This document shows, one piece after another, positions 10,587 to 27,402 of a stretch of 27,402 nt of DNA; the stretch's first letter is position 1, and every line of letters begins with the position of its first letter. The stretch covers positions 1 through 27,402 of the forward strand of contig CAYGAB010000001.1 of the NCBI GenBank assembly GCA_964347725.1, written 5' to 3'. Both the position numbers and the translations under genes were made by a program. The DNA is from an uncultured Candidatus Peribacteria bacterium. Its GTDB lineage: Bacteria; Patescibacteriota; Gracilibacteria; UBA1369; 2-02-FULL-48-14. The notes below the pieces were generated by a model. The model worked only from the letters and a program-made list of their open reading frames with translations, made no database searches and was not told the DNA's origin.

Positions 10587-10615
10587 TTGACTTCCGGTCA
10601 CCACAAGCGTACTGT
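10587..10615 (+). promoter_or_regulatory. trp operon promoter (TTGACT-17-TACTGT)
   Basis: -35 at 10587-10592, exact 17-nt spacer, -10 at 10610-10615 embedded in the operator. Confidence 0.75.
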
Positions 10616-10626
10616 TCGATCAGTAC
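10609..10626. promoter_or_regulatory. TrpR operator (GTACT-N8-AGTAC)
   Basis: GTACTGTTCGATCAGTAC is a near-perfect 18-bp palindrome with the same half-sites and 8-nt spacing as enterobacterial TrpR operators; directly upstream of trpR. Confidence 0.85.
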
Positions 10627-10919: not shown

Positions 10920-12281
10920 ATGTACCGATCAACCAATACGTCCGTCACCCCCAAGTTCAAAAAGTTTCCGCTGGACGAACGTCTCACATTGCCAGTGTTG
11001 TTTGAACAGCTCACGGCCGATCAGCCAGAAGCATTTTTGTTTGAAAGTGCCGACAATGTGGGCGGGAAAGGCCGCTATTCTTATCTGGGTTTTGACCCTG
11101 CCAAGCGTTTTGTGTTTGAAGCGGGAGCCAAGGAGAATCCGCTGGAAATCTTGCGCCACTTTTGCCAAGAAATAGAATTCCACAAGAGTCCGGAACTGCC
11201 GCCTTTTCAGGGTGGATTCGTGGGCTATTTCAGTTATGAAGTGGGCCGACATTTTGAAGACCTGAATTTGCCCTTGGACGGAGCCAAAATTCCGGAAGGG
11301 ATTTTTTTCTTGCCTCAACAAATGGTCGCCATAGACCACAATCTCAAGGAACTATTTTTGATCGCCACCACACAAGAAGCGTTGGAAAGATTGGAGGCAA
11401 AATTCCGAAACGTGGACTTGTCGCTCAAAAAAATAAAAGCGAGTGATGAGCTCGATCGGTCAGATGAATCGGCAGCGCACGAAGACGAAGAAGCACGGTT
11501 GTTAGAAGGCATTGCCATGGCTCAAGAACGAATCAAAGCTGGAGAGATTTTTCAGGTGGTGCTGAGCCGAGGGTTCCAAAGAAAAACCAATTTAAGTCCA
11601 CTGGAGTTGTACGCTCGTTTGCGTTTGGCCTCCCCCTCGCCCTACATGTTTTTTCTGAAATTTGCCGATTTTTGCATTGCCGGCGCTTCTCCAGAAACCC
11701 AGGTGAAGATTCAAGATCGGCAGGTCATGGTGAGGCCCATTGCGGGAACTCGTCGTCGAGGTAGAACTCCGCTGGAAGATCTGGAGCTGGCTGAAGAACT
11801 GAGTCAAGACCCAAAAGAATTGGCCGAACACCAAATGTTGGTGGACTTGGCTCGCAACGACGTGGGCCGAGTGGCCAAACCCGGAACCGTGAGAGTCAGT
11901 CAGCACAAGGACATTCAAAAATTTAGCCACGTCATGCACATGGTTTCAGAAGTGCGAGGAGAACAATCTGAAGACAAAGATCTCTTTGATGTATTTCAAG
12001 CCAGTTTTCCGGCGGGAACTTTGTCTGGCGCACCCAAAGTGAGGGCCATGAAAATCATTGCCGAATTGGAAGCCAAACCACGAGACATTTATGGAGGTGC
12101 GGTGGGCTACTTCGGTCTGGACGGAAACATGGACTTGGCCATCGCCATCCGCACCATGCTCATCAAAGACGGAACCGTGACTTTCCGAACGGGAGCTGGA
12201 ATTGTGCACGACTCTCAGCCGAATTTGGAACACAAAGAGTGCCTCAACAAAGCGCAAGGAATTTTAACCGCTCTCCAATGA
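10920..12281 (+). CDS. trpE: Anthranilate synthase component I
   Basis: LFESA and SPSPYMF (Trp-feedback motifs), GEIFQVVLS, RPIAGT, EHQMLVDLARND, FPAGTLSGAPK, GAGIV. Confidence 0.95.
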   Translation: MYRSTNTSVTPKFKKFPLDERLTLPVLFEQLTADQPEAFLFESADNVGGKGRYSYLGFDPAKRFVFEAGAKENPLEILRHFCQEIEFHKSPELPPFQGGFVGYFSYEVGRHFEDLNLPLDGAKIPEGIFFLPQQMVAIDHNLKELFLIATTQEALERLEAKFRNVDLSLKKIKASDELDRSDESAAHEDEEARLLEGIAMAQERIKAGEIFQVVLSRGFQRKTNLSPLELYARLRLASPSPYMFFLKFADFCIAGASPETQVKIQDRQVMVRPIAGTRRRGRTPLEDLELAEELSQDPKELAEHQMLVDLARNDVGRVAKPGTVRVSQHKDIQKFSHVMHMVSEVRGEQSEDKDLFDVFQASFPAGTLSGAPKVRAMKIIAELEAKPRDIYGGAVGYFGLDGNMDLAIAIRTMLIKDGTVTFRTGAGIVHDSQPNLEHKECLNKAQGILTALQ

Positions 12282-13783
12282 TCCAGCCACTGAAGACCCT
12301 CATCATCGACAACTTTGATTCTTTCACCTACAACCTAGTCCAGCTTTGTGCGGAGCTGGGCGGCAATCCAGAAGTCAGGCGCAACAAGGCCATCACTTTG
12401 AAAGAAATTGAAGCTGGCAACTACACCCACATCATTTTGTCCCCCGGCCCCGGCACCCCAGAAAACCCGGAAGATTTTGGAGTGTGTGCGGAGGTGATTC
12501 AGTCGGGGTCATGCCTCGTTCCCGTTTTGGGAGTTTGCCTTGGACACCAAGGAATCATCGCAGGTTTGGGAGGGAAAATCCTTCGAGCGCCCGTCCCCAT
12601 GCACGGAAAATCCAGCCGCATTCGAGTCGATTCCACTCACCCACTTTTTTCTGGATTGGGCGAAGAGCTGGAAGTCATGCGTTACCATTCTCTCATCGGC
12701 GAGCGAGCAAGTTTGCCAGAGGATTTAGACGTGATCGCCGAAACGGAGGACGGCTTGGTCATGGCGGTGAGCAGCAAAACTCGGCCTTTGTACGGAGTGC
12801 AGTTTCACCCAGAAAGTGTGGGCACGCCGGACGGACGGAAAATCCTGGAGAATTTCTTGAACGTGAATACCGAACAACTCTTGAGGAACATGGCTCAGCG
12901 TGGCGAAAGCGCCGAAGAGTTGAGTCTATTCTTGAAGGAGTTCAAATCAAAATCGGTGCCCTTTCCTATTGAAGCGGAAGAGTCGAAGGAAGTGATGGAC
13001 ATCTGTGGAACGGGAGGTTCTGGCTTGGCTCGTATGAACCTCTCGACGACGGTGGCTTTTGTTTTGGCGGCAGGCGGAGTGAAGGTGGCCAAACACGGAA
13101 ATAAAGCGGGGTCCGGTCGCTGCGGAAGTTTTGATCTTTTGGAAGCTTTGGGAGTTCGAACGGAGCTTAGTCCTCCAACCTTGCGCCGTTCACTCGAGCA
13201 ATTCGATCTGGTGTTTTTATTTGCGCCAGCCTTCCACCCGAGCATGAAGCAATTTGCAGAAATTCGAAAAAAAATAGCGCACCGCACGATTTTCAATCTG
13301 CTGGGACCCTTGCTCAATCCAGCCAATCCGGGATTTCAGTTGATCGGAACCACCGATGCCAAGACGGCGGAAACGCTCATGGCTGTTTTGCAAAAATCAA
13401 CCGAGAAAACTGCGATGGTGCTGCACAACGAAAGCGGTCTGGACGAAGCCATTGTGCACGGCCCGACTCAAATTCTTGAACTCAAAGACGGACAAATCAG
13501 CCGATGGGTTTTAGACCCAAAATCACTTGGACTTGGACACCCTCAAGCCCCTGAAATCGACTGGAAAAAGGCAAGCCCAGTGGACACGAATGTCCAGCTC
13601 TTTGACGACTTGCTCCACAAAAAAACGCCCGGACCTTTGATGGATCAACTGCTCCTCAATGCGGCGCTCGCCTTCAAATTGCGTGGCCGAGTGGCCAGCC
13701 TGGAAGACGGGGTGACATTGGCAAGAAATCTCATTCAAAGCGGCGCTGCTTTCCAAACTTTTCTAAACCACCAATCTTTATGA
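12278..13783 (+). CDS. trpG-trpD: Fused anthranilate synthase component II (GATase) and anthranilate phosphoribosyltransferase
   Basis: [31 protein letters not shown]; then [32 protein letters not shown]. Start at ATG 12278 (ATGA overlap with trpE). Confidence 0.93.
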
Positions 13784-15603
13784 ACGCATTTTACCAAGCC
13801 ATTCACGGCAAAGATCAGATTTCCATCATTGCGGAAATCAAAAAAGCCTCCCCCAGCCACGGGCCTTTTGGCCGTCACGCCGAACTGGATTTGATTCGCG
13901 CTTACGAATCGGCCGGAGCCAGTGCCATTTCCGTGGTGACAGAAGCACCTCGTTTTCAAGGGAGCATGGACTTGCTCAGGCGCGTGGTTCAAGCCACTTC
14001 ATTGCCAGTCATTCGCAAGGATTTTCTGACGCAAACTCAAGACATAGATGAAACGGCAGAGGCCGGTGCGTCGGCGGTTTTGCTCATCGCTCATTTGCTC
14101 AGTGTTCAGGAATTGGGGGCCATGATTCGCCACGCCCTCAAAAAAAATCTCATGCCATTGGTGGAATTGCACGACCAAGCCGATGTGGAAAAAATGAAAT
14201 CGCTCGGGCAAATTCCTGGGGTGGTTTTGGGCATCAACAATCGCGATTTGCAGACCTTGAAAACGGACGTGGACCACGCCCTTTCTTTGCTCGCCGAACT
14301 AGATCCTTTTTATCCCGTGGTGGCGGAAAGTGCTTTTGCGGAGGCCTCTCAACTGGAACCCTACTTTGGAAAAGTGGACGCCGCTTTGGTGGGCACCGCT
14401 TTTTTAACGGCGGAAGATCCTCAGGCCAAAGTGACATCTTTTGTCCACGCCGGAAACAAGGCCTACTTTGGGAATTACGGCGGACAATTCGTGAACGAAA
14501 TGTTGGTGCCCGTGCTCAAAGAAGTGGAGGAAGCTTTTGAACGATTTTGCGCCGATTCAACTCAGCAAGCCGAACTCGCCGATCTGCTCAAAAACTTTGC
14601 TGGTCGAGAAACACCCCTCACCCACGCGCGCAATCTTTCGAAGGAATTGGGCTTTCAGCTCTATCTAAAGCGCGAGGACTTATTGCACGGCGGAGCCCAC
14701 AAAACCAACAACGCGCTGGGGCAGGTTTTGCTGGCCAAGTTCATGGGCAAGAAAGAAATCATTGCGGAAACGGGAGCGGGACAGCATGGAGTGGCGACGG
14801 CCTTGGCCGGAGCCATGATGGGTTTGCCCGTCAAAATCTTCATGGGATCCGTGGACATTGAACGGCAGCAGCCCAACGCCCTCCGCATGAAATTGTTTGG
14901 CGCAGAACTCATTCCAGTAGAAACGGGATCCAAAACCCTCAAAGACGCGATCAATGAAGCCCTGCGCTATTACGTGGCGCACAACCAAGAAGTCTATTAC
15001 GTTTTTGGCACGGCGGCGGGACCTCATCCCTTTCCACGTTTGGTGAGCCACTTTCAATCGGTGATCGGCAAAGAAGCTCGTGCGCAAATTTTGGAGCGAA
15101 CCGGAAAACTCCCCAATAAAATTGTGGCCTGCGTGGGGGGTGGAAGCAACGCCATCGGCATTTTTTCCGCTTTTTTGAAGGACGAAAATGTTGAGCTGAT
15201 CGGCGTGGAGCCTGCGTTGGGCGCACCTCTCCAAAATGGAAGTCCCGGCATTGTGCACGGAGCCCTTTCCTATCTCATGCAAGACGAACACGGCCAGGTC
15301 ACAGAAAGCCACAGTTGCGCCGCTGGCCTGGACTACCCCGGCGTTGGCCCAGAACACAGCTTTCTCAAAGACCAAGGCCGAGCCAAGTACCTCTCCATCA
15401 CAGACGCAGAAGCCCTGCACGCGCTCCAAGTCCTTTGCCAAAAAGAAGGCATTTTGCCAGCGCTGGAATCGTCCCACGCTTTGGCTCAAGCTCTTAAATT
15501 CAAAGGGCAATTGGGCTCAGAGGACATCGTGATCGTTAATTTGTCTGGCCGTGGAGACAAAGACCTGGCCCAAGTGAACGAACTCCTAACCCAAATCCAA
15601 TGA
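13780..15603 (+). CDS. trpC-trpB: Fused indole-3-glycerol-phosphate synthase and tryptophan synthase beta chain
   Basis: [25 protein letters not shown], then in frame [24 protein letters not shown] (PLP lysine), [37 protein letters not shown]. No stop or TrpF sequence between the two domains. Confidence 0.93.
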
Positions 15604-16367
15604 AAGACCGCTACCAAGAAACTTTTGCCAGTCTGCGCCGAGAAAACAAAAAAGCCTTCTGTGCTTTTGCCGTTTTGGGCGATCCAAATCCAGAGGAATG
15701 TCTTCAGCGAATCCAAGAAATGTTGAAGGCCAAGCCCGATATTTTAGAACTCGGCATTCCCTTTTCGGATCCAGTGGCGGATGGCCCTGTCATTCAAGCC
15801 GCCGACGAACGAGCCTTAAAATCTGGAACCACGCCAAAATCCGCTCTGCAACTCTTGTCAAAAATTCGTCTCCAAACAGAGGTGCCGATTGGACTTTTGG
15901 TCTACGCCAACACGGTTTTTAAATACGGAATTGACCGATTTTACTCTGATGCCAAAAAGGCCGGCGCGGACAGCATTTTGATCGCCGATGTGCCTTTGGA
16001 AGAAATCCAGCCCTTCGCCGATTCGGCCAAAACTCACCAAATCCATCAAGTCATGATGTTGAGTGAAAACACCTCCACCGAACGCCTCAAACAACTCGAA
16101 CGCGTGGGCAGTGGATTTTTTTACGTGGTTTCTCAGATGGGCGTGACCGGGGACCGCCAAGGCCTCAATCCAAAAGTGGCGGAGCTTCTGGCACGATTCA
16201 AGTCCAGCACCAAAATCCCACTCCTTCTGGGATTTGGCATTTCGACGTCCGACCACATCCGAACTCTGAAAAACGCTCCCGTGGACGGATTGATCGTGGG
16301 AAGTGCGCTCGTCAAAACGCCAACCCATGAGCTGTTTGAAACCTTAAACGAACTCATCCATGCTTGA
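15600..16367 (+). CDS. trpA: Tryptophan synthase alpha chain
   Basis: [19 protein letters not shown] (catalytic Glu/Asp), GVTG, GFGIS, IVGSALV. Confidence 0.97.
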
Positions 16368-16982: not shown

Positions 16983-17714
16983 GTGAAAAAGCAACATGTT
17001 GATTTAAGTCACCTCACAGGCCCTCGGTCAACTGAATTATTGTTGGATTGGCAGGAAATGGGCCGTGAGCCAAATCGCAGGGAAAATTATTCGAACGCAT
17101 CTGGTCTCCCAGAAGAATTGGTCATGGCCCTGTCTACTCTGCAGCAGGCGATTCAAGCACAAATACAGTTTCCACACAGTATGTCTAATTTGATGAGGCT
17201 CACTTCTGCGGCAGTGAAGTCCAGCAGTGCTACTTTCGTCAGAACCTCCACGTGGACGATCAAGGGCTTGGTAAACCCTAAAAAAAGAAGAGCTGGACGA
17301 GATTTATATACAGAAGCCGTGGTGGCTTGTTCCATTGCCTTGGGAAGATTGTCTTTAGGGAGTGACGAGCTGAATTCATTTGGGGTGGCACAAAGGGAGC
17401 TCACGCACAGTCGAGGCCTAGAGGAATTGAAAAGCAAATGGGCGGCAGAAGGGATAACAACCGTTGACATCAACGGGCTGGACAGGAGCAAGGCTTTGAA
17501 ACATCTGGGAGACAGGAACAGAAGGCTTTCCCAAAAGGATTTGGCACTGTTGCGTGCACCTGGAGATTTGAGAAGTTTAGAACGTCGTGCAGAGGCTGAA
17601 GCCAGCACGTGGTCTCCAGAAGTTCTCAGCCCAATCGCCCGGAGCAGCTTTCTGACCGCTGTGGACCACGCTGCGGAACGGAGGCAGCGAAAAGGGCTCA
17701 AAAGGCTTGACTAA
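16983..17714 (+). CDS. Hypothetical protein, paralog of the downstream gene (shared C-terminal motif)
   Basis: 243 aa, GTG start; EASTWSPEVLSPIARSSFLT at 17598-17657. Confidence 0.7.
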   Translation: MKKQHVDLSHLTGPRSTELLLDWQEMGREPNRRENYSNASGLPEELVMALSTLQQAIQAQIQFPHSMSNLMRLTSAAVKSSSATFVRTSTWTIKGLVNPKKRRAGRDLYTEAVVACSIALGRLSLGSDELNSFGVAQRELTHSRGLEELKSKWAAEGITTVDINGLDRSKALKHLGDRNRRLSQKDLALLRAPGDLRSLERRAEAEASTWSPEVLSPIARSSFLTAVDHAAERRQRKGLKRLD

Positions 17715-17736
17715 GCCAATATTTCGGTTATTATTT
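17705..17736 (+). promoter_or_regulatory. Junction motif copy 2 / sigma70 promoter (TTGACT-16-TATTAT) overlapping the upstream stop codon
   Basis: gcTTGACTaagccaatatttcggtTATTATtt; the TAA stop (17712-17714) lies at the end of the -35 box. Confidence 0.65.
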
Positions 17737-17760
17737 TTTCCAAAATTTGAGATTAAATCC

Positions 17761-18708
17761 ATGGAAATCGACAGAGCAAATGTGCCGAAAGAAATAATGA
17801 ATACCGGCCCCCTTGTGGACTGGTGGAAGGAAAAGATGAACATGGGTTTTCAAGTGCCCGAGCTTGAAATTGAAGAGGCGTCACCTCCAGATTCTGTGGC
17901 AAGTGTTCTGAGCGATACCAGAGAAGCTATCGTAAGAAGAATAGAATCAGGTAGACCGTGGAGTATCGGTAGCGTGCATGGGATTGTTCGTCAATCAATA
18001 GCCAGAGAACCGGCAGGCATGGTGGACCCTAAGGTAGATGCAATCCTATCTAGATGGGGTGTTGAAACATTGATGATCGCTGATCCAAGCAGAGTGTGTG
18101 CCATCGCCCTCACTAGACAAGCTTTGGTGGGAGGAGCACCTGGGTTTACTCCTGAAGTTAATCTTACGGAAGCAGAGCAGCAGGTGACGGAGGCGCAGCA
18201 GGCATATGAAGCATTGCTGTCAAAGAATAAGGAGATCTGGGCCGATATCGAGAGCCAAGATAGAGAATTAAGAGCGAAAAAACCCACGGCAGAAAGGCTT
18301 AGAGCTCTATTGGAGAAACTGGTGGGTGCGGCTTTCCCAGGTCGGAGTCTGAACTTTGCGGCGATTCAAACTGAAATAGCTCGAGCAGAACAAGGTGCTG
18401 GAGCAAAAACTTTGTTGGCCCACTCCAACATTATGACAACCCACAACGAGCTAGCAATTGCAGAAGAAGAGATTAGGAGCTTGACTGCTGCGATTGAGCG
18501 AAATGAGAGCTTTTTCAATAATTTGGAATATGACGATCGTAGTGCGTACGGAAACCAATTGAGGGCAGAGGGATTGGTGCTTGAGGCAAGAACATGGACT
18601 CAAGACTTTCTAGAGCCAATTGCGCAAAGCAGCTTTATGACAGGGCTTGCAATCAAAGCTATGAAAAATGCGGCAAAGTTAAAACGGGGAAAGATCAGTC
18701 TGAATTAA
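17761..18708 (+). CDS. Hypothetical coiled-coil-rich protein, paralog of the upstream gene
   Basis: ATG at 17761, downstream of the promoter, preferred over TTG 17707; heptad-like helices; EARTWTQDFLEPIAQSSFMT at 18583-18642. Confidence 0.75.
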   Translation: MEIDRANVPKEIMNTGPLVDWWKEKMNMGFQVPELEIEEASPPDSVASVLSDTREAIVRRIESGRPWSIGSVHGIVRQSIAREPAGMVDPKVDAILSRWGVETLMIADPSRVCAIALTRQALVGGAPGFTPEVNLTEAEQQVTEAQQAYEALLSKNKEIWADIESQDRELRAKKPTAERLRALLEKLVGAAFPGRSLNFAAIQTEIARAEQGAGAKTLLAHSNIMTTHNELAIAEEEIRSLTAAIERNESFFNNLEYDDRSAYGNQLRAEGLVLEARTWTQDFLEPIAQSSFMTGLAIKAMKNAAKLKRGKISLN

Positions 18709-18727
18709 GCCACCAATAAGGTCATTG
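18698..18727 (+). repeat. Junction motif copy 3 (degenerate)
   Basis: 19/30 identical to 17704-17733, with TAAGCCA again centred on the stop codon (18706-18708). Confidence 0.45.
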
Positions 18728-18746
18728 AATACTCAATATTCCTCAA

Positions 18747-19964
18747 ATGAAATCAAATCCAGATCAATGGCTCATTCTCGACAATGATTACACTATTTCC
18801 GGACAGGAGGGATACCGAAGTGAATGTCTGCCCGGCCTAGAGCCATTGTTAGTTAGGCAAGGTAAAGAAAGAAATGTTGCCGTTTATTCAAGGAGCGGCC
18901 TCGCGTCCATAAACAGAAGGTTAGGAGATAAAACTAAGCATTTGGACGGGATCTTCTCCCAGTGTGAACCTATGATGTCCGATTCAGACGTATTGCTTTT
19001 TCAGGGGGGTCTTCATCACAGAAGTGAAGTAGCGGAAATCACCGGAGAAACAAAGGCTCAAATTCAAGCAGCAAGGGAGGTAGTCGTGAGGCAAGACCAT
19101 CCCACCTTAGTTGAAGAGCTGCGTATCCTGACATTTGCTTATGAATTCCATGAGCGCTATAAAAAAACTATAGCGCCTGGACGAGTGGTTAGTAGGGATA
19201 AGATTCAAGAGGATATGGATTCTTATCCAGGTGACGTACAAATCCTAAAATCTAGCCCCAACACAACATACAGGAACTTTCATTTCCCATTTCCTCTGGG
19301 CACTACCTTAACGCCAGAACTGGAAAATGCCATTCGAATCCGCCTTGCACAACAACAAAAGGAAGGAAGTTCCAAACATCAAACAACAATGCAACCTCTA
19401 AAGGATCAACTACAAGCGTATCGCACGCAGACTAACTTTGAGGCTGTTTTAAATAAATATCGGGATTTAATTTCTGAACAATGGACTTACAAGGGCTCTG
19501 GGGGGTCTGTAAGTGCCGACTACTACCGAAATCCCTACACGGGGGCTGCTAATATGGACCTTAAAGATCTACACCGCTTACGACTGAGAATGAAATCGGA
19601 AGGACGTAGTGAATCGATGAAAATGGTCATGATTGAAGACTGGTATGGTATTCAAGAGGGGTCCATCCACGAAAGCGACCCCCTCACGCCAGTACTAGTG
19701 GTGGATCCTGAGGACAGCGGATGGATTCAAAGAGGGGCGATAGAAGGGCTCGTTGAACGACTGTTCCAGCATCCAGATGGCCCGAATCATGCTTTTCGTG
19801 CCATGCTATCGAACGCTCCATCTACAAATCACCGCTACGTCAAGCGTAGGTGCAGCCTTACTTTAGACGGTCATCGTTTTGTCTTAGGAGAAGGGAAAAG
19901 AGGAGGATTCGTTGGCACTGAAAACACTCCACGAAATCTGAAATTCTTTAACAAGCTTTCTTAA
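18747..19964 (+). CDS. HAD-superfamily hydrolase, NIF/FCP1-like motif arrangement with a large insertion
   Basis: Motif I WLILDNDYT (DxDxT), LPGLEPLL, motif II VAVYSRS, then after about 190 extra residues LKDLHRL (motif III Lys) and MVMIED (motif IV). Confidence 0.6.
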   Translation: MKSNPDQWLILDNDYTISGQEGYRSECLPGLEPLLVRQGKERNVAVYSRSGLASINRRLGDKTKHLDGIFSQCEPMMSDSDVLLFQGGLHHRSEVAEITGETKAQIQAAREVVVRQDHPTLVEELRILTFAYEFHERYKKTIAPGRVVSRDKIQEDMDSYPGDVQILKSSPNTTYRNFHFPFPLGTTLTPELENAIRIRLAQQQKEGSSKHQTTMQPLKDQLQAYRTQTNFEAVLNKYRDLISEQWTYKGSGGSVSADYYRNPYTGAANMDLKDLHRLRLRMKSEGRSESMKMVMIEDWYGIQEGSIHESDPLTPVLVVDPEDSGWIQRGAIEGLVERLFQHPDGPNHAFRAMLSNAPSTNHRYVKRRCSLTLDGHRFVLGEGKRGGFVGTENTPRNLKFFNKLS

Positions 19965-20002
19965 AGTGCATAGGAATTTCCTGCTCACCGGCCAATTTAA
20001 AA

Positions 20003-20030
20003 TTGCCCCATCCCATTTTTCTGCTAGAAT
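20003..20030 (+). promoter_or_regulatory. aro operon promoter (TTGCCC-16-TAGAAT with extended -10 TGn)
   Basis: -35 at 20003-20008, TG at 20022-20023, TAGAAT at 20025-20030; 21 nt above the leader ATG. Confidence 0.7.
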
Positions 20031-20051
20031 AAACGCACTCACACAAGTTTT

Positions 20052-20126
20052 ATGCAATTGCACACCTGGTACGGATTCTTTGGATTCTTTTACAACTTCG
20101 CTCCGGCGAGGCTAAGGGTTGTGTAG
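20052..20126 (+). CDS. Aromatic-amino-acid attenuator leader peptide MQLHTWYGFFGFFYNFAPARLRVV (24 aa; not in the ORF track)
   Basis: ATG CAA TTG CAC ACC TGG TAC GGA TTC TTT GGA TTC TTT TAC AAC TTC ... GTG TAG; 8 of codons 6-16 are aromatic (1 Trp, 2 Tyr, 5 Phe). Confidence 0.9.
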   Translation: MQLHTWYGFFGFFYNFAPARLRVV

Positions 20127-20157
20127 AAAATTTTTACTTCAACACCCAAAAGGCCTC
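20092..20157 (+). promoter_or_regulatory. Attenuator alternative structures: 1:2 (pause) and 2:3 (antiterminator) hairpins
   Basis: 1:2 is TTCGC-tccg-GCGAG (20097-20110) extended by ACAAC/GTTGT (20092-96/20118-22). 2:3 is GAGGC/GCCTC (20108-12/20153-57) plus GGGTTG/CAAC-A-CC and GTAGA/TTTAC. Confidence 0.8.
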
Positions 20158-20175
20158 CCCAGCGAGGTCTTTTTT
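20148..20175 (+). terminator. Attenuator terminator (3:4)
   Basis: AAAAGGCCTC-cccagc-GAGGTCTTTT stem followed by a T-tract (20170-20175); 29 nt before the aroA ATG. Confidence 0.88.
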
Positions 20176-20204
20176 GTTCTCAAGGCTTAATTTTACCCCC
20201 GATC

Positions 20205-21500
20205 ATGCGACTGCAAGTCTCCCCCATTTCCAAACTGAACGGCAGCGTCCGAATTCCCGGATCCAAGTCTCAAAGTGTGCGAGCTTTTTTGGTGGCGACT
20301 TTGGCAAAAGGGCGATCAGAAATTCACGCTCTGCCATCTGGAGAAGACGTGAAAGCAGCGGAAGCCGTGGCGCAAAGTTTGGGTGCTCAAGTGGACACGC
20401 TGGACTGCCATGGACATTGCGTGGCGTTGACGAGCCAGGGCCTGCCTTTGTCCATTTCTCCTGAAATGTGGACAGCCAATTCCGGCATCACGACCCGATT
20501 TGTTTTGCCAATTTTAGGGCTCAGTGCTCAGCCAGATCAAAGTGTGAAGGTGGACTGTGGATCTCAAATGCGTCAACGGCTCATCCAAAGTTACCTGCAA
20601 AACCTCCAAGATCTGGGCCTCAAAATTCAAGAAAGCGAGGGTGGTTGGCCTTTGCAAGTTTCCGGCCAACTCCAAGGCGGATCGGTCACGGTGGAAGGCC
20701 TCACCTCTCAATACCTGTCCGGGCTGTTGCTCTCAGCATGTTGCGCTCGACAAGACACGATTTTGACCGTTCACAATCTGAACGAAAGACCCTACGTGGA
20801 CATGACGCTCAAGTGGTTGAAGGACCAAGGCATTCGTTTTGAACACGAGCGAACCGCAACGCGAGATCGCTTCACGGTCTTTGCGGGGCAAAAATACTCT
20901 CCGATTGACTTCACCGTTCCGGGCGATTTTTCCTCAGCCTCTACCCTCTTGGCGGCAGGCGCTCTCTTCAAAGGCGAACTGCTCTTGCAAGGCTTGGACA
21001 TGGACGATCCTCAGGGCGATCGGCGACTCGTCGAGATTCTAAAAGAGATGGGAGTGGACATCCAAGTGGACAGTGCCGGCCTGAAAATCCGCGGTGGCAA
21101 ACCACTCAAAGGGCTAAGGGTGGACGCGAATGACATTCCAGACATGCTCCCCACTTTGGCGGTGCTCGGAACTCAAGTGGAAGGCGGAATAGAAATTGTG
21201 AACGTGCCTCAAGCTCGTTTTAAAGAGACCGACAGAATCCATTCCATGGCAGAAGGTTTGCGAAAAATGGGCGCTCAGGTGGAAGAAAAAACAGATGGAC
21301 TGACGGTGTATCCGGGCCCTCTCCAGGGGGCTGAGCTGCAGGGCTATGAAGATCACCGAACGATCATGGCACTCGCACTCGCAGGACTCTTGGCGGAGGG
21401 CAGCACAAAAATAGACACCGCCGAGGGCCTCAACAAAACCTATCCGGAATTCACGGAACACATGAACGCCCTGGGTGCAAAACTTTCTCTAATCGATTAA
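20205..21500 (+). CDS. aroA: EPSP synthase (3-phosphoshikimate 1-carboxyvinyltransferase)
   Basis: PGSKS, NSGITTRF, TSQYLSGLL, VPGDFSSA, DIPDMLP, KETDRI, DHRTIMA, KTYPEF. Confidence 0.96.
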   Translation: MRLQVSPISKLNGSVRIPGSKSQSVRAFLVATLAKGRSEIHALPSGEDVKAAEAVAQSLGAQVDTLDCHGHCVALTSQGLPLSISPEMWTANSGITTRFVLPILGLSAQPDQSVKVDCGSQMRQRLIQSYLQNLQDLGLKIQESEGGWPLQVSGQLQGGSVTVEGLTSQYLSGLLLSACCARQDTILTVHNLNERPYVDMTLKWLKDQGIRFEHERTATRDRFTVFAGQKYSPIDFTVPGDFSSASTLLAAGALFKGELLLQGLDMDDPQGDRRLVEILKEMGVDIQVDSAGLKIRGGKPLKGLRVDANDIPDMLPTLAVLGTQVEGGIEIVNVPQARFKETDRIHSMAEGLRKMGAQVEEKTDGLTVYPGPLQGAELQGYEDHRTIMALALAGLLAEGSTKIDTAEGLNKTYPEFTEHMNALGAKLSLID

Positions 21501-21511
21501 ACTCACTTCAA

Positions 21512-22039
21512 ATGAAAAAGCATCTCATCCTCATTGGATTCAAACACAGCGGAAAAAGCACGCTTGGCCGAGAGCTCGGCGCCAAGCTTGGTAGAAATTT
21601 TGTGGACTTGGACGAGGCGATCCAGGCCGCACACTTGGAGCAAACGGGCGAAGATCTCAGTTGCCGAGAAATTTTGCGTGGTCACGGAGAAGAACACTTC
21701 CGCGAATTGGAACACGAAGTCCTCAAGACGGCACTGGCCAATCCCAATCCACTCATTTTGGCTTTGGGCGGAGGTACTCCCATGATGCAAGAAAACCAAG
21801 ATCTAATTCGACCTCACCAAGTGGTTCACATTTCCGCTCCAAAAAGCGTGATTTTTGAACGGATCATGATCCACGGCAAACCCGCATTTTTCTCGGCGGA
21901 AGTGGACGCTTTTGACCACTTTCAAGAACTTTGGGCCAAACGAGCACCCATCTTTGAATCTTTGGCGGACGTGACCATTCAGAACAAAGGCGCGCTGGAA
22001 CCCGTCGTTAATGAAATCATCGAACACTTTCAAACATGA
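21512..22039 (+). CDS. aroK: Shikimate kinase
   Basis: LIGFKHSGKSTLG P-loop, FVDLD, GEEHFRELE, ALGGGT. Confidence 0.92.
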   Translation: MKKHLILIGFKHSGKSTLGRELGAKLGRNFVDLDEAIQAAHLEQTGEDLSCREILRGHGEEHFRELEHEVLKTALANPNPLILALGGGTPMMQENQDLIRPHQVVHISAPKSVIFERIMIHGKPAFFSAEVDAFDHFQELWAKRAPIFESLADVTIQNKGALEPVVNEIIEHFQT

Positions 22040-23217
22040 AAAAAATCCTTCTCATCCACGGACCAAATTTGAATCGTCTTGGCCGGCGCGACCCAAAACA
22101 TTACGGCACGATCACTCTGCCAGAGTTGGAAGCCTGTGTGCGGGAAGCGGCTCAAAAAAAAGGCTACGAATTGGAGGCTTTTCAGTCCAATCACGAAGGC
22201 GCTTTGATCGATTGGATTCAAGAAAAATCCGATTCCGCGGCTGGAATTTTGATCAACCCTGGGGCGCTCACTCACAGCAGTTACGCCTTGCACGATGCGC
22301 TTTTGGACACGGGTTTGCCTTGCGTGGAATTGCATTTGTCGGACCTTTCTCAGCGTGAAGATTGGCGGCAAAAATCTGTGACGGCTCCAGCTTGCATGGC
22401 CGTGAGACAAGGCAAAGGCAAGGACTCTTATTTGGAAGGGCTGGAACTTTTGACGACCCCGCTCAACGCCGTGATTGGCTTTCCGCTCGGGCATTCCCAA
22501 AGTCCCGCTTTCCATTCGGCGCAGTACCGTGAGCGCGGAATCAATGCCGTGATGCTGGCCTGGGCCAATCCGGATGTGAGGGTTTTGGTGCAAGTGATTC
22601 GCGACTATAAAATTGGTCTGACAGCAGTGACGCTTCCTCACAAAGAAAGCATTTTGCCACTTTTGGATCACGTGGACGAACTCGCAAAACGCATTGGCGC
22701 CGTGAACACGGTCTTGCAAATTCATGGAAAACTCCACGGTTTCAACACGGACTACCTCGGTCTGAAAACCGCCTTGAGCACCGTGGACTTGAAAGGGAAA
22801 ACGGTTTTACTGCTGGGAGCCGGTGGAGCGGCTCGTCCCCTCGCCGCCTTGGTTTCAGATTCAGGCGGACACTTGTTTTGCTTGAACCGCAGCCATGAAA
22901 AAGCCCAAGCTTTGGTGGAGGAATTTGGTGGCAGGGCCATCACGGAATCGGACTTGGACGGACTTTCTCCCAACATCATCGTCAACACCACGCCGCTCGG
23001 CATGCATCCAAAAGAGGACGAAACTCCTCTGGATTCTCGGCATTTTAAGCCGGGCCAAAGCGTTTTGGACATTGTCTACAATCCGGAAGAAACTCGATTT
23101 TTACGTGAAGCCAAGGTCGCCGGCGCCTTCACGATTTCCGGAAAAATCATGTTTGAAGCTCAAGCTCTGGAGCAAATTCAGCTCTGGGAAAACAACGTTT
23201 TATCGACTAACTCTTAA
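22036..23217 (+). CDS. aroQ-aroE: Fused type II 3-dehydroquinate dehydratase and shikimate dehydrogenase
   Basis: HGPNLNRLGRRDPKHYG, SNHEG, INPGALTH, VELHLS; then GFPLGHSQSP, VTLPHK, AVNT, NTD, GAGGAA, NTTPLGM, DIVYNP. Confidence 0.93.
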   Translation: MKKILLIHGPNLNRLGRRDPKHYGTITLPELEACVREAAQKKGYELEAFQSNHEGALIDWIQEKSDSAAGILINPGALTHSSYALHDALLDTGLPCVELHLSDLSQREDWRQKSVTAPACMAVRQGKGKDSYLEGLELLTTPLNAVIGFPLGHSQSPAFHSAQYRERGINAVMLAWANPDVRVLVQVIRDYKIGLTAVTLPHKESILPLLDHVDELAKRIGAVNTVLQIHGKLHGFNTDYLGLKTALSTVDLKGKTVLLLGAGGAARPLAALVSDSGGHLFCLNRSHEKAQALVEEFGGRAITESDLDGLSPNIIVNTTPLGMHPKEDETPLDSRHFKPGQSVLDIVYNPEETRFLREAKVAGAFTISGKIMFEAQALEQIQLWENNVLSTNS

Positions 23218-23220
23218 TCC

Positions 23221-24261
23221 ATGCGTTTCACCGTCACCAAAAAATTACCTCGCGCGGAGGACATCATTCAAAAGCATCCCCTCTCCGACCGAGCTTGGGA
23301 ACAAATCGACCAAGACAAAAAAGAACTCCAAGCGATTCTGTCTGGCCGAGATGACAGAAAAATCGTGATCGTCGGACCTTGTTCCGCCTGGCCTTTTGAA
23401 GGCGTTTTGGACTACGCCGCTCGACTCAAAGAACTCAGCAAAAAAGTGGATCACAAACTCAAAATCGTGATGCGCTGCTACATCCAAAAACCACGCACCA
23501 CCAAAGGCTGGTTGGGGCCAGTCAATCAACCCGATCCTTACGCCGTTCCCGACATTGAAGCCGGCGCTTATTACGCCCGCAGCCTCATGGTGCAGATCAT
23601 AGAAATGGGTTTGCCGATTGCGGACGAAGCCGTTTTCACCAACAATGCCAAAGGATTTGTGGAACTTTTATCTTGGTTGGCGATTGGCGCTCGCAGCACA
23701 GAAGATCAAGAACATCGCATTTTTGCCTCCGCCGTGGACTGCCCCGTTGGCATGAAAAATCCAACCAGCGGAATGATTGAAATTGGAGCGAACAGCGTGG
23801 TGGTGGCGCAACACCCGCACACCGCCGTTTTTGATGGAATGCAGGTGGAAACTCAGGGAAATCCTTACGCTCATTTGGTCTTGCGTGGAGGTCTGCATAG
23901 GTCCAACTACCACGTGGAAGACTTGTACGAAGCCAAAAAATGTCTGGAAGCCGCTCAAGTTAAAAACCCGGCTGTGATAGTGGACGCCAGCCACGACAAC
24001 TGCAAAATCAACGGTGCCAAAAACGCAGTTCAACAGATGCACGTCGTGAGAGAAATCATGTCCACTTTGGCGCTTTATCCAGAGCTCAATTCTCTCGTCA
24101 AAGGCTTCATGTTGGAAAGTTTCATCAAACGTGGCAGTCAAAAAATCGAATCCATGAAGCCTGAAGAAGTGGACATGGGCGGACTTTCCATCACAGACCC
24201 CTGCCTCGGTTGGGAAGACACCGAGCAACTGCTCCTAGAAATGGCCAACACGCTCGTATAA
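23221..24261 (+). CDS. DAHP synthase, class I-alpha (AroF/G/H family)
   Basis: GPCS, KPRTT, IGARS, PVGMKN, LVLRGG, IVDASHDN, MLES, SITDPCLGW. Effector specificity cannot be read from the sequence by eye. Confidence 0.93.
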   Translation: MRFTVTKKLPRAEDIIQKHPLSDRAWEQIDQDKKELQAILSGRDDRKIVIVGPCSAWPFEGVLDYAARLKELSKKVDHKLKIVMRCYIQKPRTTKGWLGPVNQPDPYAVPDIEAGAYYARSLMVQIIEMGLPIADEAVFTNNAKGFVELLSWLAIGARSTEDQEHRIFASAVDCPVGMKNPTSGMIEIGANSVVVAQHPHTAVFDGMQVETQGNPYAHLVLRGGLHRSNYHVEDLYEAKKCLEAAQVKNPAVIVDASHDNCKINGAKNAVQQMHVVREIMSTLALYPELNSLVKGFMLESFIKRGSQKIESMKPEEVDMGGLSITDPCLGWEDTEQLLLEMANTLV

Positions 24262-24272
24262 AAACTCTTTTC

Positions 24273-25310
24273 ATGCAAGAAAATTTTTCAATTCAAATCC
24301 CGGCCTCGCCACGCCAAACCCCCCTTTATTTTGGAGAAGCTTTGTTGACGCACTTGCCGGAACTTCTCAAAAAACACGCTCCGGCTCACCGCTACGCTTT
24401 GATCACGGACAGCACGGTGGAAACTTTGCATGGGAAAGCTTTGGCTCAGCAATTAAAATCCGCCGGACTCGATTTGACTTTGCTCTCTTTCCCGGCCGGA
24501 GAATCCAGCAAAAATGAAGCCACGAAACAGCAGCTCGACCACGAACTTTTGAAGCGCGGATTTGGCCGAGACACGGTCTTGTTGGCCTTGGGTGGTGGCG
24601 TGGTGGGAGACATGGTTGGCTTTGTAGCGGCCACGTATTTGCGTGGCATTCCTTTTGTCCAAATTCCGACCACGGTTTTGGCCATGGTGGACAGTTCCAT
24701 CGGAGGAAAAGTGGGCGTGGACACGCCTTTTGGGAAAAATTTGATTGGCGCTTTTTGGCACCCAAATTTGATTGTGGCGGACACGGACACGCTCTCCACT
24801 TTGTCGGAAGAACAAAAGCAAAACGGATTTTTTGAAGTGCTGAAAATGGCCCTGTGTTTGGACATGGAAGCCAACTCCATTGAACGCGCCATGCAACTCA
24901 AAGCCAAAATCGTGTCCGCGGACGAACGCGAGTCGGCCCAAAGAGCCGTCTTGAATTTTGGTCACACGGTGGGCCACGCTTTGGAATTGTTGAGCGATTA
25001 TCGTCTCTTGCACGGATTCGCGGTGGGACTTGGAATGTGGGTGGAAGCCCGCATTTCTTGTTTTCTGGGGCACTTGTCTCCAGCCGATTTCAAAGAAGTG
25101 GAGGCACGATTGATCGCTCACGGAACGGACCTTTCTGTCTTGCAACAATACGATCCAAATGCCGTGTGGGACGCCATGCAATCCGACAAAAAAAACCGAG
25201 AAGGAAAGGTGAAAATGGTGCTGCTCGCTGGCCTCGGCAAAGTGGTGGACGACGGCGGATTCACCCATCCCGTTTCCAAAGAAGATTTCTTGTCCAGCTT
25301 CAAAATCTAA
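24273..25310 (+). CDS. aroB: 3-dehydroquinate synthase
   Basis: GESSK, ALGGGVVGDMVGF, PTTVLAMVDSSIGGK, KNLIGAF, LNFGHTVGHA, LLHG, DKK. ATG at 24273. Confidence 0.95.
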   Translation: MQENFSIQIPASPRQTPLYFGEALLTHLPELLKKHAPAHRYALITDSTVETLHGKALAQQLKSAGLDLTLLSFPAGESSKNEATKQQLDHELLKRGFGRDTVLLALGGGVVGDMVGFVAATYLRGIPFVQIPTTVLAMVDSSIGGKVGVDTPFGKNLIGAFWHPNLIVADTDTLSTLSEEQKQNGFFEVLKMALCLDMEANSIERAMQLKAKIVSADERESAQRAVLNFGHTVGHALELLSDYRLLHGFAVGLGMWVEARISCFLGHLSPADFKEVEARLIAHGTDLSVLQQYDPNAVWDAMQSDKKNREGKVKMVLLAGLGKVVDDGGFTHPVSKEDFLSSFKI

Positions 25311-25320
25311 TCCCATTTCT

Positions 25321-26025
25321 ATGTCTGAATTGCCCAAAAAAATCATCTACGCCGGAAACGAAGGCTCTTTTTCCTGGGCCGCCGCTCGACTGATTGAAGG
25401 AATGGATTTGCCTCTTGAACCTTCCCTCAGCCCGGGACGAGTGATCGAACGGCTCCACGCCGGTGAGGCCTCGCACGGGATGATTCCCTTCCGAAATCCG
25501 GACGTGGGAGAAGGCACCATTCTTTCTACGGAAGAAGCCTTTGCACAACTCGGCCTGCCTTTGCCAGAAGCAAAACTCAAAGGCGAAGCTTGGTGGGAAT
25601 CCTTGCAAGCCATGCATCCCGATTGGATTTTGAGCCACCGCATTCCCCTGCCCGTGCGATTCCACGTCTTGGCAAAACCGGGACTCAAGCCCGAGGACAT
25701 CACCAGAATCATTGCTTTCACGATTGCTTCCGCTCAGTGTGGCGCAGGGTTTGAACGCGTCATTGGCCGGCCTTTCGACTTGATCACGGACTACAGCGAC
25801 ACCGCCAAAGCCGCCGCCGATCTCCAGAAATTGTTGCAAGACCCAAGCTTGGTGGACCGCGACCCAGAAGTGAAACTCCTCTTGCCCGTGGAACACACGG
25901 GAGTTCTCGGCAACGAATGGTGCGCCGTCATGTACGGTTTGGACATCGTTTACCGTGACGTTCAAAATCAACCCGAAGGCAATGTCACCACCTTTGCTCT
26001 ACTCCGTAACCCTTGGCACAAATGA
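25321..26025 (+). CDS. Divergent prephenate/arogenate dehydratase, catalytic domain only (no ACT domain)
   Basis: IYAGNEGSFS, HGMIPFRN, SAQC, DTAKAA, YGLDIV.RDVQNQ..NVTTF parallel the PDT motifs (LGPEGTFS, PIENS, LAQC, STAEAA, YGL..L...IED...NTTRF); 234 aa. Confidence 0.75.
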   Translation: MSELPKKIIYAGNEGSFSWAAARLIEGMDLPLEPSLSPGRVIERLHAGEASHGMIPFRNPDVGEGTILSTEEAFAQLGLPLPEAKLKGEAWWESLQAMHPDWILSHRIPLPVRFHVLAKPGLKPEDITRIIAFTIASAQCGAGFERVIGRPFDLITDYSDTAKAAADLQKLLQDPSLVDRDPEVKLLLPVEHTGVLGNEWCAVMYGLDIVYRDVQNQPEGNVTTFALLRNPWHK

Positions 26026-26990
26026 AATTTGGAATCCTAGGCCATGGCCGATTTGGAAAACTCTGGGCGGAGTGCCTCCGGCCTTTTGGAGACGTTTTGG
26101 TGCACGACCCAAACCAAGAAAAAACGGACTCACTCACGGACACTCTGAACGTAGATTTTCTTTTTCTCGCCGTGCCCATGTCCAGCTTTGAGCAAGTCTG
26201 CAAAGACATCGCGTCGCACATTCCAGCGCACACGGTCGTGGTGGATTTGTGTTCCGTGAAAGTGCATCCAGCGGAGGTCATGCTCAAAGAGTTCTCAAGC
26301 GATCAGCCACTCATTGCTACCCACCCTTTGTTTGGCCCAGATTCCGTGAAAAGCCTCGGCTTGGCAGGGCGAAAAATAGTGGTTTGTCCTTTGCGAGTTG
26401 AGCCAGTTCACACACAAAAACTCCTGAACATTTTCGAGAAAATGGAGCTCGTGGTCATGCTTTCCACACCCCAAGAGCACGACGAACAAATGGCCAAGTC
26501 TCAAGCTTTGGTCCACTTCATTGGCAGGGGTTTGGCCTCCCTCCACCTCTCTGAACAAGCCATGTCCACGCCCGACTACCAAGCTCTCTTGAAAATCGAC
26601 AGCGTCGTCAACAACGACACCTGGGAACTCTTCTACAACATGCAGCAGCTCAATCCATTCACTGCCCAAATTCGCCACAGCTTCCTTCAAAAACTCCAAG
26701 ACCTCAATGACGAAATTGACCAACCGTCTTGCCTAGACGAGTACCGCCAAAACATCGAATTCATCGACCAAAGCATTGTCCATTTATTGGGCCAGCGCAT
26801 GAAGTGGGCGCACAACATCGGACGCATCAAAAAACAAGAAGGCCAGGCCGTTCGAGACGAAGCCCGCGAACAAAAACTCAAAGCCCTGCACCGTGAACTC
26901 GCTGAAAAAGAAGGCGTGCCTCACGAACTCGTGGAAGAACTCTTTGAACAAGTCATGGCCGCCTCACGTTCTCTCCAATCCAAACTTTAA
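26022..26990 (+). CDS. tyrA: TyrA-family (prephenate/arogenate) dehydrogenase with C-terminal AroQ-class chorismate mutase
   Basis: GILGHGRFG Rossmann motif, DLCSVK, ATHPLFGP, EHDEQMA; C-terminal LDEYRQNIEFIDQSIVHLLGQR..IGRIKK..VRDEARE chorismate mutase motif. ATG at 26022 (ATGA overlap). Confidence 0.9.
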   Translation: MKFGILGHGRFGKLWAECLRPFGDVLVHDPNQEKTDSLTDTLNVDFLFLAVPMSSFEQVCKDIASHIPAHTVVVDLCSVKVHPAEVMLKEFSSDQPLIATHPLFGPDSVKSLGLAGRKIVVCPLRVEPVHTQKLLNIFEKMELVVMLSTPQEHDEQMAKSQALVHFIGRGLASLHLSEQAMSTPDYQALLKIDSVVNNDTWELFYNMQQLNPFTAQIRHSFLQKLQDLNDEIDQPSCLDEYRQNIEFIDQSIVHLLGQRMKWAHNIGRIKKQEGQAVRDEAREQKLKALHRELAEKEGVPHELVEELFEQVMAASRSLQSKL

Positions 26991-27000
26991 TCAAGCAAAA

Positions 27001-27402
27001 ATGCCTGCGTCCCCAAAAACATTTCAAGCCTCGGCCACGGTGCAAATCAATTCTTTGGCTCAGCAAAAAAAAGCCCGCGGCGAACGCATTTACAACCTCA
27101 GTGCCGGCGAGCCCATTTTGAATTCCGGGCATTTTTACAAAGCGACCATGAGCCGAATTTTGGACGAAGGCAAAACCCTTTACCCGCCCACGGCCGGCCT
27201 AGACGCTCTCCGCAAAACCGCCGCCGATTGGATGAATCGCCACCATCAAACTGACTACAACGCCGCCAACACCATGGTCACTCCCGGTGGGAAATTCGCC
27301 CTCCATTTGGCCATGCAATCGCTCTTGAATCCCGGCGACGAAGTGCTCCTTCCCTCTCCGCATTATTTGTCCTACCCTCCCATGTTGGAACTCGTCGGAG
27401 CC
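27001..27402 (+). CDS. PLP-dependent class I aminotransferase (subgroup I-beta AspAT-like), 3'-truncated by the window edge; not in the ORF track
   Basis: Manual translation: MPASPKTFQASATVQINSLAQQKKARGERIYNLSAGEP...YPPTAGLDALRK...VTPGGKFAL...NPGDEVLLPSPHYLSYP; open to the window end. Confidence 0.9.
   Translation, partial: MPASPKTFQASATVQINSLAQQKKARGERIYNLSAGEPILNSGHFYKATMSRILDEGKTLYPPTAGLDALRKTAADWMNRHHQTDYNAANTMVTPGGKFALHLAMQSLLNPGDEVLLPSPHYLSYPPMLELVGA

Follow-up and report, generated by a model that had tools for sequence, protein, structure and literature searches.

A predicted phenylalanine- and tyrosine-sensing leader-peptide attenuator upstream of the aromatic amino acid operon of a Candidatus Peribacteria bacterium

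In the pheL-pheA, pheM-pheST and trpL/hisL/thrL class of Escherichia coli systems, as outlined in PMC11802643, a short open reading frame (ORF) carrying codons for the end product is combined with alternative 1:2, 2:3 and 3:4 hairpins and a terminator, with the position of the ribosome deciding which of these form. The same source summarises the work of Neshat et al. (2014) on the aroR leader (F-Y-F) of Corynebacterium glutamicum, a mixed Phe/Tyr attenuator located upstream of the aroF (DAHP synthase) operon; in that summary, only Phe limitation had an effect (PMC11802643). In mycobacteria, leaderless polycysteine short ORFs constitute Cys-responsive attenuators (bioRxiv 10.1101/834739). According to a survey from 2010, leader-peptide systems were at that time known only in the Proteobacteria and Actinobacteria, to which it added the Firmicutes (PMC2965389).

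The locus described here is situated on contig CAYGAB010000001.1 (GenBank assembly GCA_964347725.1) of an uncultured Candidatus Peribacteria bacterium, of which the whole stretch analysed, 27,402 nucleotides in length, is referred to as the window. The CPR (Patescibacteria) are generally portrayed as minimal symbionts that possess few biosynthetic pathways and about whose regulation little is known. A short aromatic-rich ORF, competing hairpins and an intrinsic terminator are located upstream of aroA in this genome, and we consider it very probable that they constitute a classical ribosome-mediated leader-peptide transcription attenuator with charged tRNA-Phe and tRNA-Tyr as its input.

The leader region and its genomic context

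A sigma-70-type promoter on the forward strand at 20003-20030, comprising TTGCCC (20003-20008), a 16-nt spacer and the extended -10 element TG-n-TAGAAT (20025-20030), is the sole promoter-like site in a consensus scan of the leader region and coincides with the promoter originally predicted ahead of the leader. The leader ORF (MQLHTWYGFFGFFYNFAPARLRVV; forward strand, 20052-20126) begins with an ATG at 20052, located 21 nt from the end of the -10 hexamer, the start site being placed by the promoter match, and ends with a TAG codon at 20124-20126. Direct reading confirms the predicted length of 24 codons and the predicted counts of five Phe, two Tyr and one Trp codons in the regulatory run W6 to F16 (20067-20099), which reads W-Y-G-F-F-G-F-F-Y-N-F and is aromatic in eight of eleven residues. 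The start and stop codons and the enrichment in end-product codons that characterize the leader peptides of attenuators are all present in this predicted ORF. When all frames of the 1.09-Mb genome (198 contigs, ~89% complete) were scanned, giving approximately 57,000 small ORFs, eight aromatic residues in eleven were found only in this leader and in one ORF inside a coding region, making the leader the only intergenic small ORF of this composition and the one with the highest aromatic density in the genome. The second such ORF and all 7/11 cases checked sit inside long ORFs. The aromatic density of the leader is not due to chance. A perfect 9-nt tandem duplication (two copies of GGATTCTTT; 20073-20090) is present within the aromatic codon run and has added a second Gly-Phe-Phe, and because of this duplication the leader is longer and richer in Phe codons than those of its closest relatives.

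Shine-Dalgarno (SD)-like cores were observed upstream of 6% of 726 long ORFs, versus 13% in random 17-mers, and positions -16 to -7 are depleted in G. Since SD-like motifs are depleted upstream of genes, a leader without an SD is normal for this host. A relative of the same order (G025; record OZ246407.1) is labelled Candidatus Peribacteria, and the remaining close aroA relatives carry the labels Magasanikbacteria, Peregrinibacteria, Gracilibacteria, Parcubacteria or Patescibacteria group. These CPR labels, together with the SD depletion, support the earlier description of the host as an SD-less CPR bacterium. All sequencing runs listed as containing this DNA are DNA metagenomes.

Folding places segment 1 (CUUCGC) at 20096-20101 and segment 2 (GCGAGGCU) at 20106-20113, both on the forward strand, as are the elements that follow. 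A 1:2 hairpin had been proposed at 20092-20122; its core helix, between CUUCGC and GCGAGG (20106-20111), is recovered, whereas the outer limits, though possible, are absent from the minimum-energy fold. Segment 2 pairs either with segment 1 or, via GAGGCU, with segment 3. The latter pairing, predicted as a 2:3 antiterminator spanning 20108-20157 via GAGGC/GCCTC, appears in folding as GAGGCU (20108-20113) paired with GGCCUC (20152-20157) and encloses a spacer hairpin at 20116-20147, with a total of -16.4 kcal/mol in the stalled-state fold. The intrinsic terminator at 20148-20175 was found as predicted by both approaches, with a consensus scan returning one terminator-like hairpin at 20148-20173 (10 pairs, 6-nt loop, T-run on to 20175) and folding pairing segment 3 (GGCCUC; 20152-20157) with segment 4 (GAGGUC; 20164-20169), extended by A-U pairs and followed by the U-tract at 20170-20175 (-11.8 kcal/mol). 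Segment 1, as 20095-20102, can also pair with segment 4 in this locus, because segment 4 resembles segment 2.

The antiterminator excludes the terminator and is itself excluded by the 1:2 hairpin, with weaker support at this locus (z -1.7): the 2:3 duplex amounts to -15.0 kcal/mol compared to -11.2 +/- 2.3 for dinucleotide shuffles, 5% of which are as good, and the helix is short, with six pairs including one G-U, and its gain over the shuffles is marginal. A putative outer helix, P0, the 5′ half of which (20058-20067) pairs with 20116-20126 and would enclose 1:2, reaches -11.8 kcal/mol (z -1.9) in this locus; although visible by eye in many loci, it is kept as tentative because, across the 23 loci, it averages no more than z -1.0 relative to shuffles. 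The terminator sequence GGCCUC-CCCAGC-GAGGUC (20152-20169) carries the word CUCCCCAGCGAGG, of which the 1:2 hairpin within the leader ORF of a relative (L002) is also made, and the terminator of this window may have been copied from or rearranged out of the upstream hairpin.

The operon downstream of the terminator is encoded on the forward strand and was annotated by Pfam comparison. It comprises aroA (20205-21500), aroK (21512-22039), an aroQ-aroE fusion (22036-23217), a DAHP synthase gene (23221-24261), aroB (24210-25310), and genes coding for a prephenate dehydratase (25321-26025), a prephenate dehydrogenase with chorismate mutase (26013-26990) and an aminotransferase (26893 onward) which runs off the window. 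These genes are tightly packed over 20205-27402, where they overlap or lie no more than 11 nt apart. Control over the "whole shikimate operon", as the original prediction had it, holds for six of the seven common-pathway steps and for the Phe and Tyr branches, but the chorismate synthase gene (aroC) is located on another contig behind a plain promoter without a leader. The 234 amino acid prephenate dehydratase matches the catalytic PDT domain only (residues 8-230, Pfam), with no room for a C-terminal ACT regulatory domain. If feedback at the enzyme level were weak, as this domain match may suggest, control of the pathway could fall mainly to the RNA switch. The U-tract is separated from aroA by 29 nt, a gap in which no promoter match was found. 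No Pfam match was obtained for the two genes upstream of the promoter (17707-19964). That the hairpin serves as the terminator of the upstream gene was ruled out, as the promoter separates the two and different genes occupy the upstream position in different loci.

The same window harbors a trp operon at 10920-16367, comprising trpE, trpG-D, a trpC-trpB fusion and trpA, which is led by a gene of the Trp repressor family (PF01371; 10575-10904). The promoter of this TrpR-like gene, TTGACT-17-TACTGT, overlaps an 18-bp palindrome, GTACTGTTCGATCAGTAC (GTACTG..CAGTAC; 10609-10626), which resembles the enterobacterial trp operator and represents a putative operator.

A second candidate leader is located outside the window on another contig of the same genome (C31:8704-8845), where the ORF MKPCCTNTFTTTGSTRQEA, with five Thr in seven residues, lies behind a TTGACT promoter. 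A long hairpin (GGCUUGAGU...ACUCAAGCC; -23.5 kcal/mol) overlaps a terminator composed of AGCGAC...GUCGC and U6. The gene directly downstream is cut by the contig end, and its N-terminus reads like that of a threonyl-tRNA synthetase (thrS). This Thr-rich candidate would follow the same logic before thrS.

Conservation of the leader and antiterminator

The original prediction proposed that relatives be searched for aromatic-rich ORFs upstream of aroA, and such ORFs were found in 22 other loci, where an ATG-started, F/Y-rich ORF of 13-26 codons is located 110-280 nt upstream of aroA. Seven of these loci belong to the same family, five are of the Peribacteria/Peregrinibacteria type and ten of the Magasanikbacteria type. 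The resulting 23 loci, drawn from the host's own family, Candidatus Peribacteria/Peregrinibacteria, and Candidatus Magasanikbacteria with other CPR-labelled metagenome-assembled genomes (MAGs), are related and do not represent independent samples. The five Peribacteria/Peregrinibacteria-type leaders share the motif MNN..KT(F/Y)GYFFYNF..LKA, while ..FYFYF(W/F/G)..TS is found in the ten of the Magasanikbacteria type. In all 23 loci a promoter match (9-11 of 12 positions) is present just upstream of the leader, and a hairpin with a U-run precedes aroA, so that each has a counterpart of the terminator that separates the leader ORF from the first structural gene in this window. The ATG, the open frame, Tyr codons besides those for Phe and a stop codon adjoining segment 2 are likewise kept throughout (23/23). 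The related loci that were checked retain the order aroA-aroK-aroQE-DAHPS but differ in their upstream gene. Family members without a leader beside aroA also occur, at least two of which (L008 and L014) have aroA directly behind another gene, inside an operon. A metagenome scan for further leaders of the host's own family returned only the two other sequence types.

The -10 hexamer ends 7-12 nt before the leader ATG in 18/23 loci (L002-L004, L006, L009-L011, L033-L045 and L089-L095), compared to 21 nt in this window, and in those 18 loci the mini-ORF would be translated from a leaderless or near-leaderless mRNA. Most genomes of the same order (L013-L026) encode an aroA product only ~30% identical, with no leader beside the gene, whereas in MAGs labelled as other CPR classes (Magasanikbacteria; L033-L045) the aroA operon is 50% identical and is preceded by a leader. 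This distribution hints that the operon and its putative attenuator have spread laterally within the CPR.

One design is served by three unrelated helix sequences across the 23 loci. In the host's own family, segments 2, 3 and 4 read GCGAGG, CCUCGC and GCGAGG, respectively, compared to UGAAGGC, GCCUUCA and GAAGGC in the Peribacteria type. The Magasanikbacteria type has GUCGAGG or GCCGAGG as segment 2, CCUCGAC or CCUCGGY as segment 3 and GAGG as segment 4. In each of the 23 loci the 2:3 duplex is more stable than its dinucleotide shuffles (z from -1.4 to -6.5, with a mean of -3.0). Native 2:3 partners reach -12.8 kcal/mol on average, compared to -11.0 when partners are swapped within a type and -7.7 when swapped between types.

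The search for covarying stems that had been proposed yielded compensatory antiterminator changes in the Magasanikbacteria type but almost none by RNAalifold within types. Antiterminator pairs were counted by an anchored script because segment 2 was misaligned in four rows of the MAFFT alignments. In the Magasanikbacteria type, a switch between G-C and A-U is found at antiterminator position +2 in 4/10 loci and at +1 in 2/10, and one locus shows a change from C-G to U-A at position -1. In the terminator, all ten loci leave position +2 unpaired, and six of them position +1 as well. The complementarity at +1, +2 and -1 is explained by the predicted antiterminator only. RNAalifold detected double changes within a type in 0/19 pairs (Peribacteria type) and 1/9 pairs (Magasanikbacteria type), and within one type the predicted helices are simply conserved.

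Ribosome position and the amino acids sensed

In the proposed mechanism, transcription would begin at the promoter at 20003-20030, and a ribosome would translate the 24-codon leader while RNA polymerase moves on downstream. With Phe and Tyr plentiful, the ribosome would reach the TAG codon and cover segment 2 (20106-20113), leaving segment 3 free to pair with segment 4, and transcription would terminate at 20148-20175, 29 nt before aroA. When tRNA-Phe or tRNA-Tyr is scarce, the ribosome would stall on the F/Y codons, with approximately F13 to F16 weighing most, and cover segment 1, upon which segment 2 would pair with segment 3, enclose the spacer hairpin and prevent the terminator, such that the aro/phe/tyr operon is transcribed. 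In the RNA without a ribosome, either 1:2 together with 3:4 or a nested 1:4 and 2:3 structure would form. As both of these folds place a stem directly beside the U-tract, termination would be the default.

The folding under ribosome-footprint constraints that the original prediction had proposed as a check was carried out with a mask of 28 nt (-17 to +10 relative to the first base of the A site) and agrees with this scheme, a stall on F/Y codons sequestering the 5′ arm of the terminator and a ribosome at the stop codon leaving it largely free. In transcripts ending before segment 4, a ribosome on the 3′-proximal F/Y codons gives segment 3 a pairing probability of ~0.7-1.0 in nearly all loci (0.92-0.99 in this locus), with lower values for distal codons of some Peribacteria-type leaders. 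With the ribosome at the stop codon this value falls to 0.02-0.65 (0.44 in this locus), L011 being the exception. When segment 4 is included, most loci show a high terminator probability at the stop codon and a low one during stalls.

For this locus, equilibrium folding with segment 4 yields no clean on/off picture. The free RNA and early stalls (W6 to F10) give the nested 1:4 and 2:3 hairpin, which also ends at the U-tract; as such stalls do not cover segment 1, termination should still follow. When the A site holds Y14 or F16 and segment 4 is present, the terminator 3:4 is favoured at equilibrium (P 0.92-0.94), and read-through must therefore be kinetic, with a pre-formed 2:3 helix. In the E. 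coli trp leader, 3:4 is also the more stable helix and kinetic read-through is the accepted picture. Because pairing between segments 1 and 4 blurs the equilibrium picture, folding of the truncated transcript was judged the more relevant test. The effective codons in this leader are probably F13, Y14 and F16. The geometry put forward in the original prediction, with stalling on the aromatic codons covering segment 1 and the stop codon position covering segment 2, stands for codons F13 to F16 and for the stop codon and fails for W6 to F10.

The original prediction further proposed that a single device integrates Trp, Tyr and Phe. Sensing of Phe and Tyr is retained here; that all three end products are integrated and the single Trp codon forms a physiologically meaningful input is, in our estimation, unlikely. 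A Trp codon is present in 8/23 leaders, one in each, and 15/23 have none, but where it occurs it is always inside or directly beside the F/Y run and never elsewhere. Five Magasanikbacteria-type leaders (FYFYFW or FYFYW) carry it at the 3′ end of the run, right by segment 1, whereas W6 is the 5′-most aromatic codon in this leader and the farthest from segment 1. When W6 occupies the A site, the ribosome covers ~20050-20077 and stops 18 nt short of segment 1, so that a stall there leaves 1:2 or 1:4 free to form; Trp is also the first aromatic codon in L004, again too distant to mask segment 1. Trp synthesis also draws on chorismate from this operon, but the trp operon is equipped with a TrpR-like regulator and putative operator of its own. 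Because W6 is too far from segment 1 and the trp operon appears to be under separate TrpR-like control, a sensor of Phe and Tyr is the best reading of this leader.

We regard it as improbable that the hairpin acts simply as a terminator or insulator, or as a switch operated by a protein or small ligand, with the aromatic-rich ORF untranslated or incidental. Translation of the ORF is deduced from its sequence and U-rich spacers easily yield Phe codons, but all 23 loci maintain the ATG, the frame, both Phe and Tyr codons and the stop beside segment 2. The ORF has no SD, as would be expected if it were untranslated, yet the host is generally SD-poor. Furthermore, a promoter is placed between the upstream gene and the hairpin, the 29-nt gap before aroA holds no promoter match, and no Rfam riboswitch or T-box match was found, all of which speaks against this reading. 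Even less credible is that the small ORF encodes a functional hydrophobic micro-protein to which the hairpins are unrelated: the aromatic richness of the peptide is conserved, but outside the F/Y run the peptides of the three types are unrelated, and the C-terminal FAPQRG conserved in the host's own family coincides exactly with RNA segments 1 and 2, so that the constraint acts at the RNA level.

Comparison with known attenuators

A full-text literature search combining CPR/Patescibacteria with leader peptide or attenuator returned no paper on such a system by title or abstract. The mechanism of the putative attenuator is ordinary and conforms to the textbook; it is the phylum that is new, none seeming to have been published there. 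What it contributes is annotation and a view of CPR physiology, and not a new principle. A conserved attenuator before a near-complete aromatic pathway would show that Phe and Tyr are made and regulated in these lineages, that transcription and translation are coupled closely enough for attenuation, and that a regulatory mini-ORF is started independently of an SD, often from a very short 5′ UTR. More tentatively, and with some doubt, leader-peptide attenuation could be a general device of biosynthetically competent CPR bacteria, operating on SD-independent, often near-leaderless mini-ORFs and rebuilt at least three times with unrelated helices on the same aro operon, with Trp being integrated with Phe and Tyr in some lineages, possibly this one included. 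If so, tight transcription-translation coupling and real amino-acid homeostasis would exist in organisms that are usually called auxotrophic symbionts.

No Rfam family reached its gathering score anywhere in the window, and a permissive scan of 19950-20230 returned sub-threshold terminator matches only. The element is not a member of the Phe_leader family (RF01859), which scored 17.8 bits against a gathering score of 55 (E = 1.3) and matched the terminator only. Likewise, no curated Rfam model of a T-box or riboswitch matched in the window.

In its architecture the element resembles the E. coli pheL and pheM leaders, with a short ORF of end-product codons, alternative hairpins and an intrinsic terminator, between which the position of the ribosome would decide. 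It has no homology to them in sequence or structure, as the Phe_leader score shows, and it differs in its SD-poor host, in its mixture of Phe and Tyr codons and in preceding the common pathway together with the Phe and Tyr branches, where pheL precedes pheA alone. The regulatory ORF shares with the mycobacterial polycysteine ORFs a location at or near the 5′ end of the transcript in 18/23 loci, as judged from start sites placed by promoter matches, but the amino acid and the phylum are different and the predicted 5′ UTR in this window is longer (21 nt from the -10 to the ATG). Besides E. coli pheL, the closest precedent is the C. glutamicum aroR leader, which is also a mixed Phe/Tyr leader on a common-pathway aromatic operon, the two being likened by the description summarised in PMC11802643 and not by sequence. 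The novelty that the original prediction attached to a leader over the common pathway was overstated, as the F-Y-F leader of aroR precedes it (PMC11802643). As summarised there, aroR has three aromatic codons and belongs to a different phylum, whereas the leader described here carries five Phe, two Tyr and one Trp codons.
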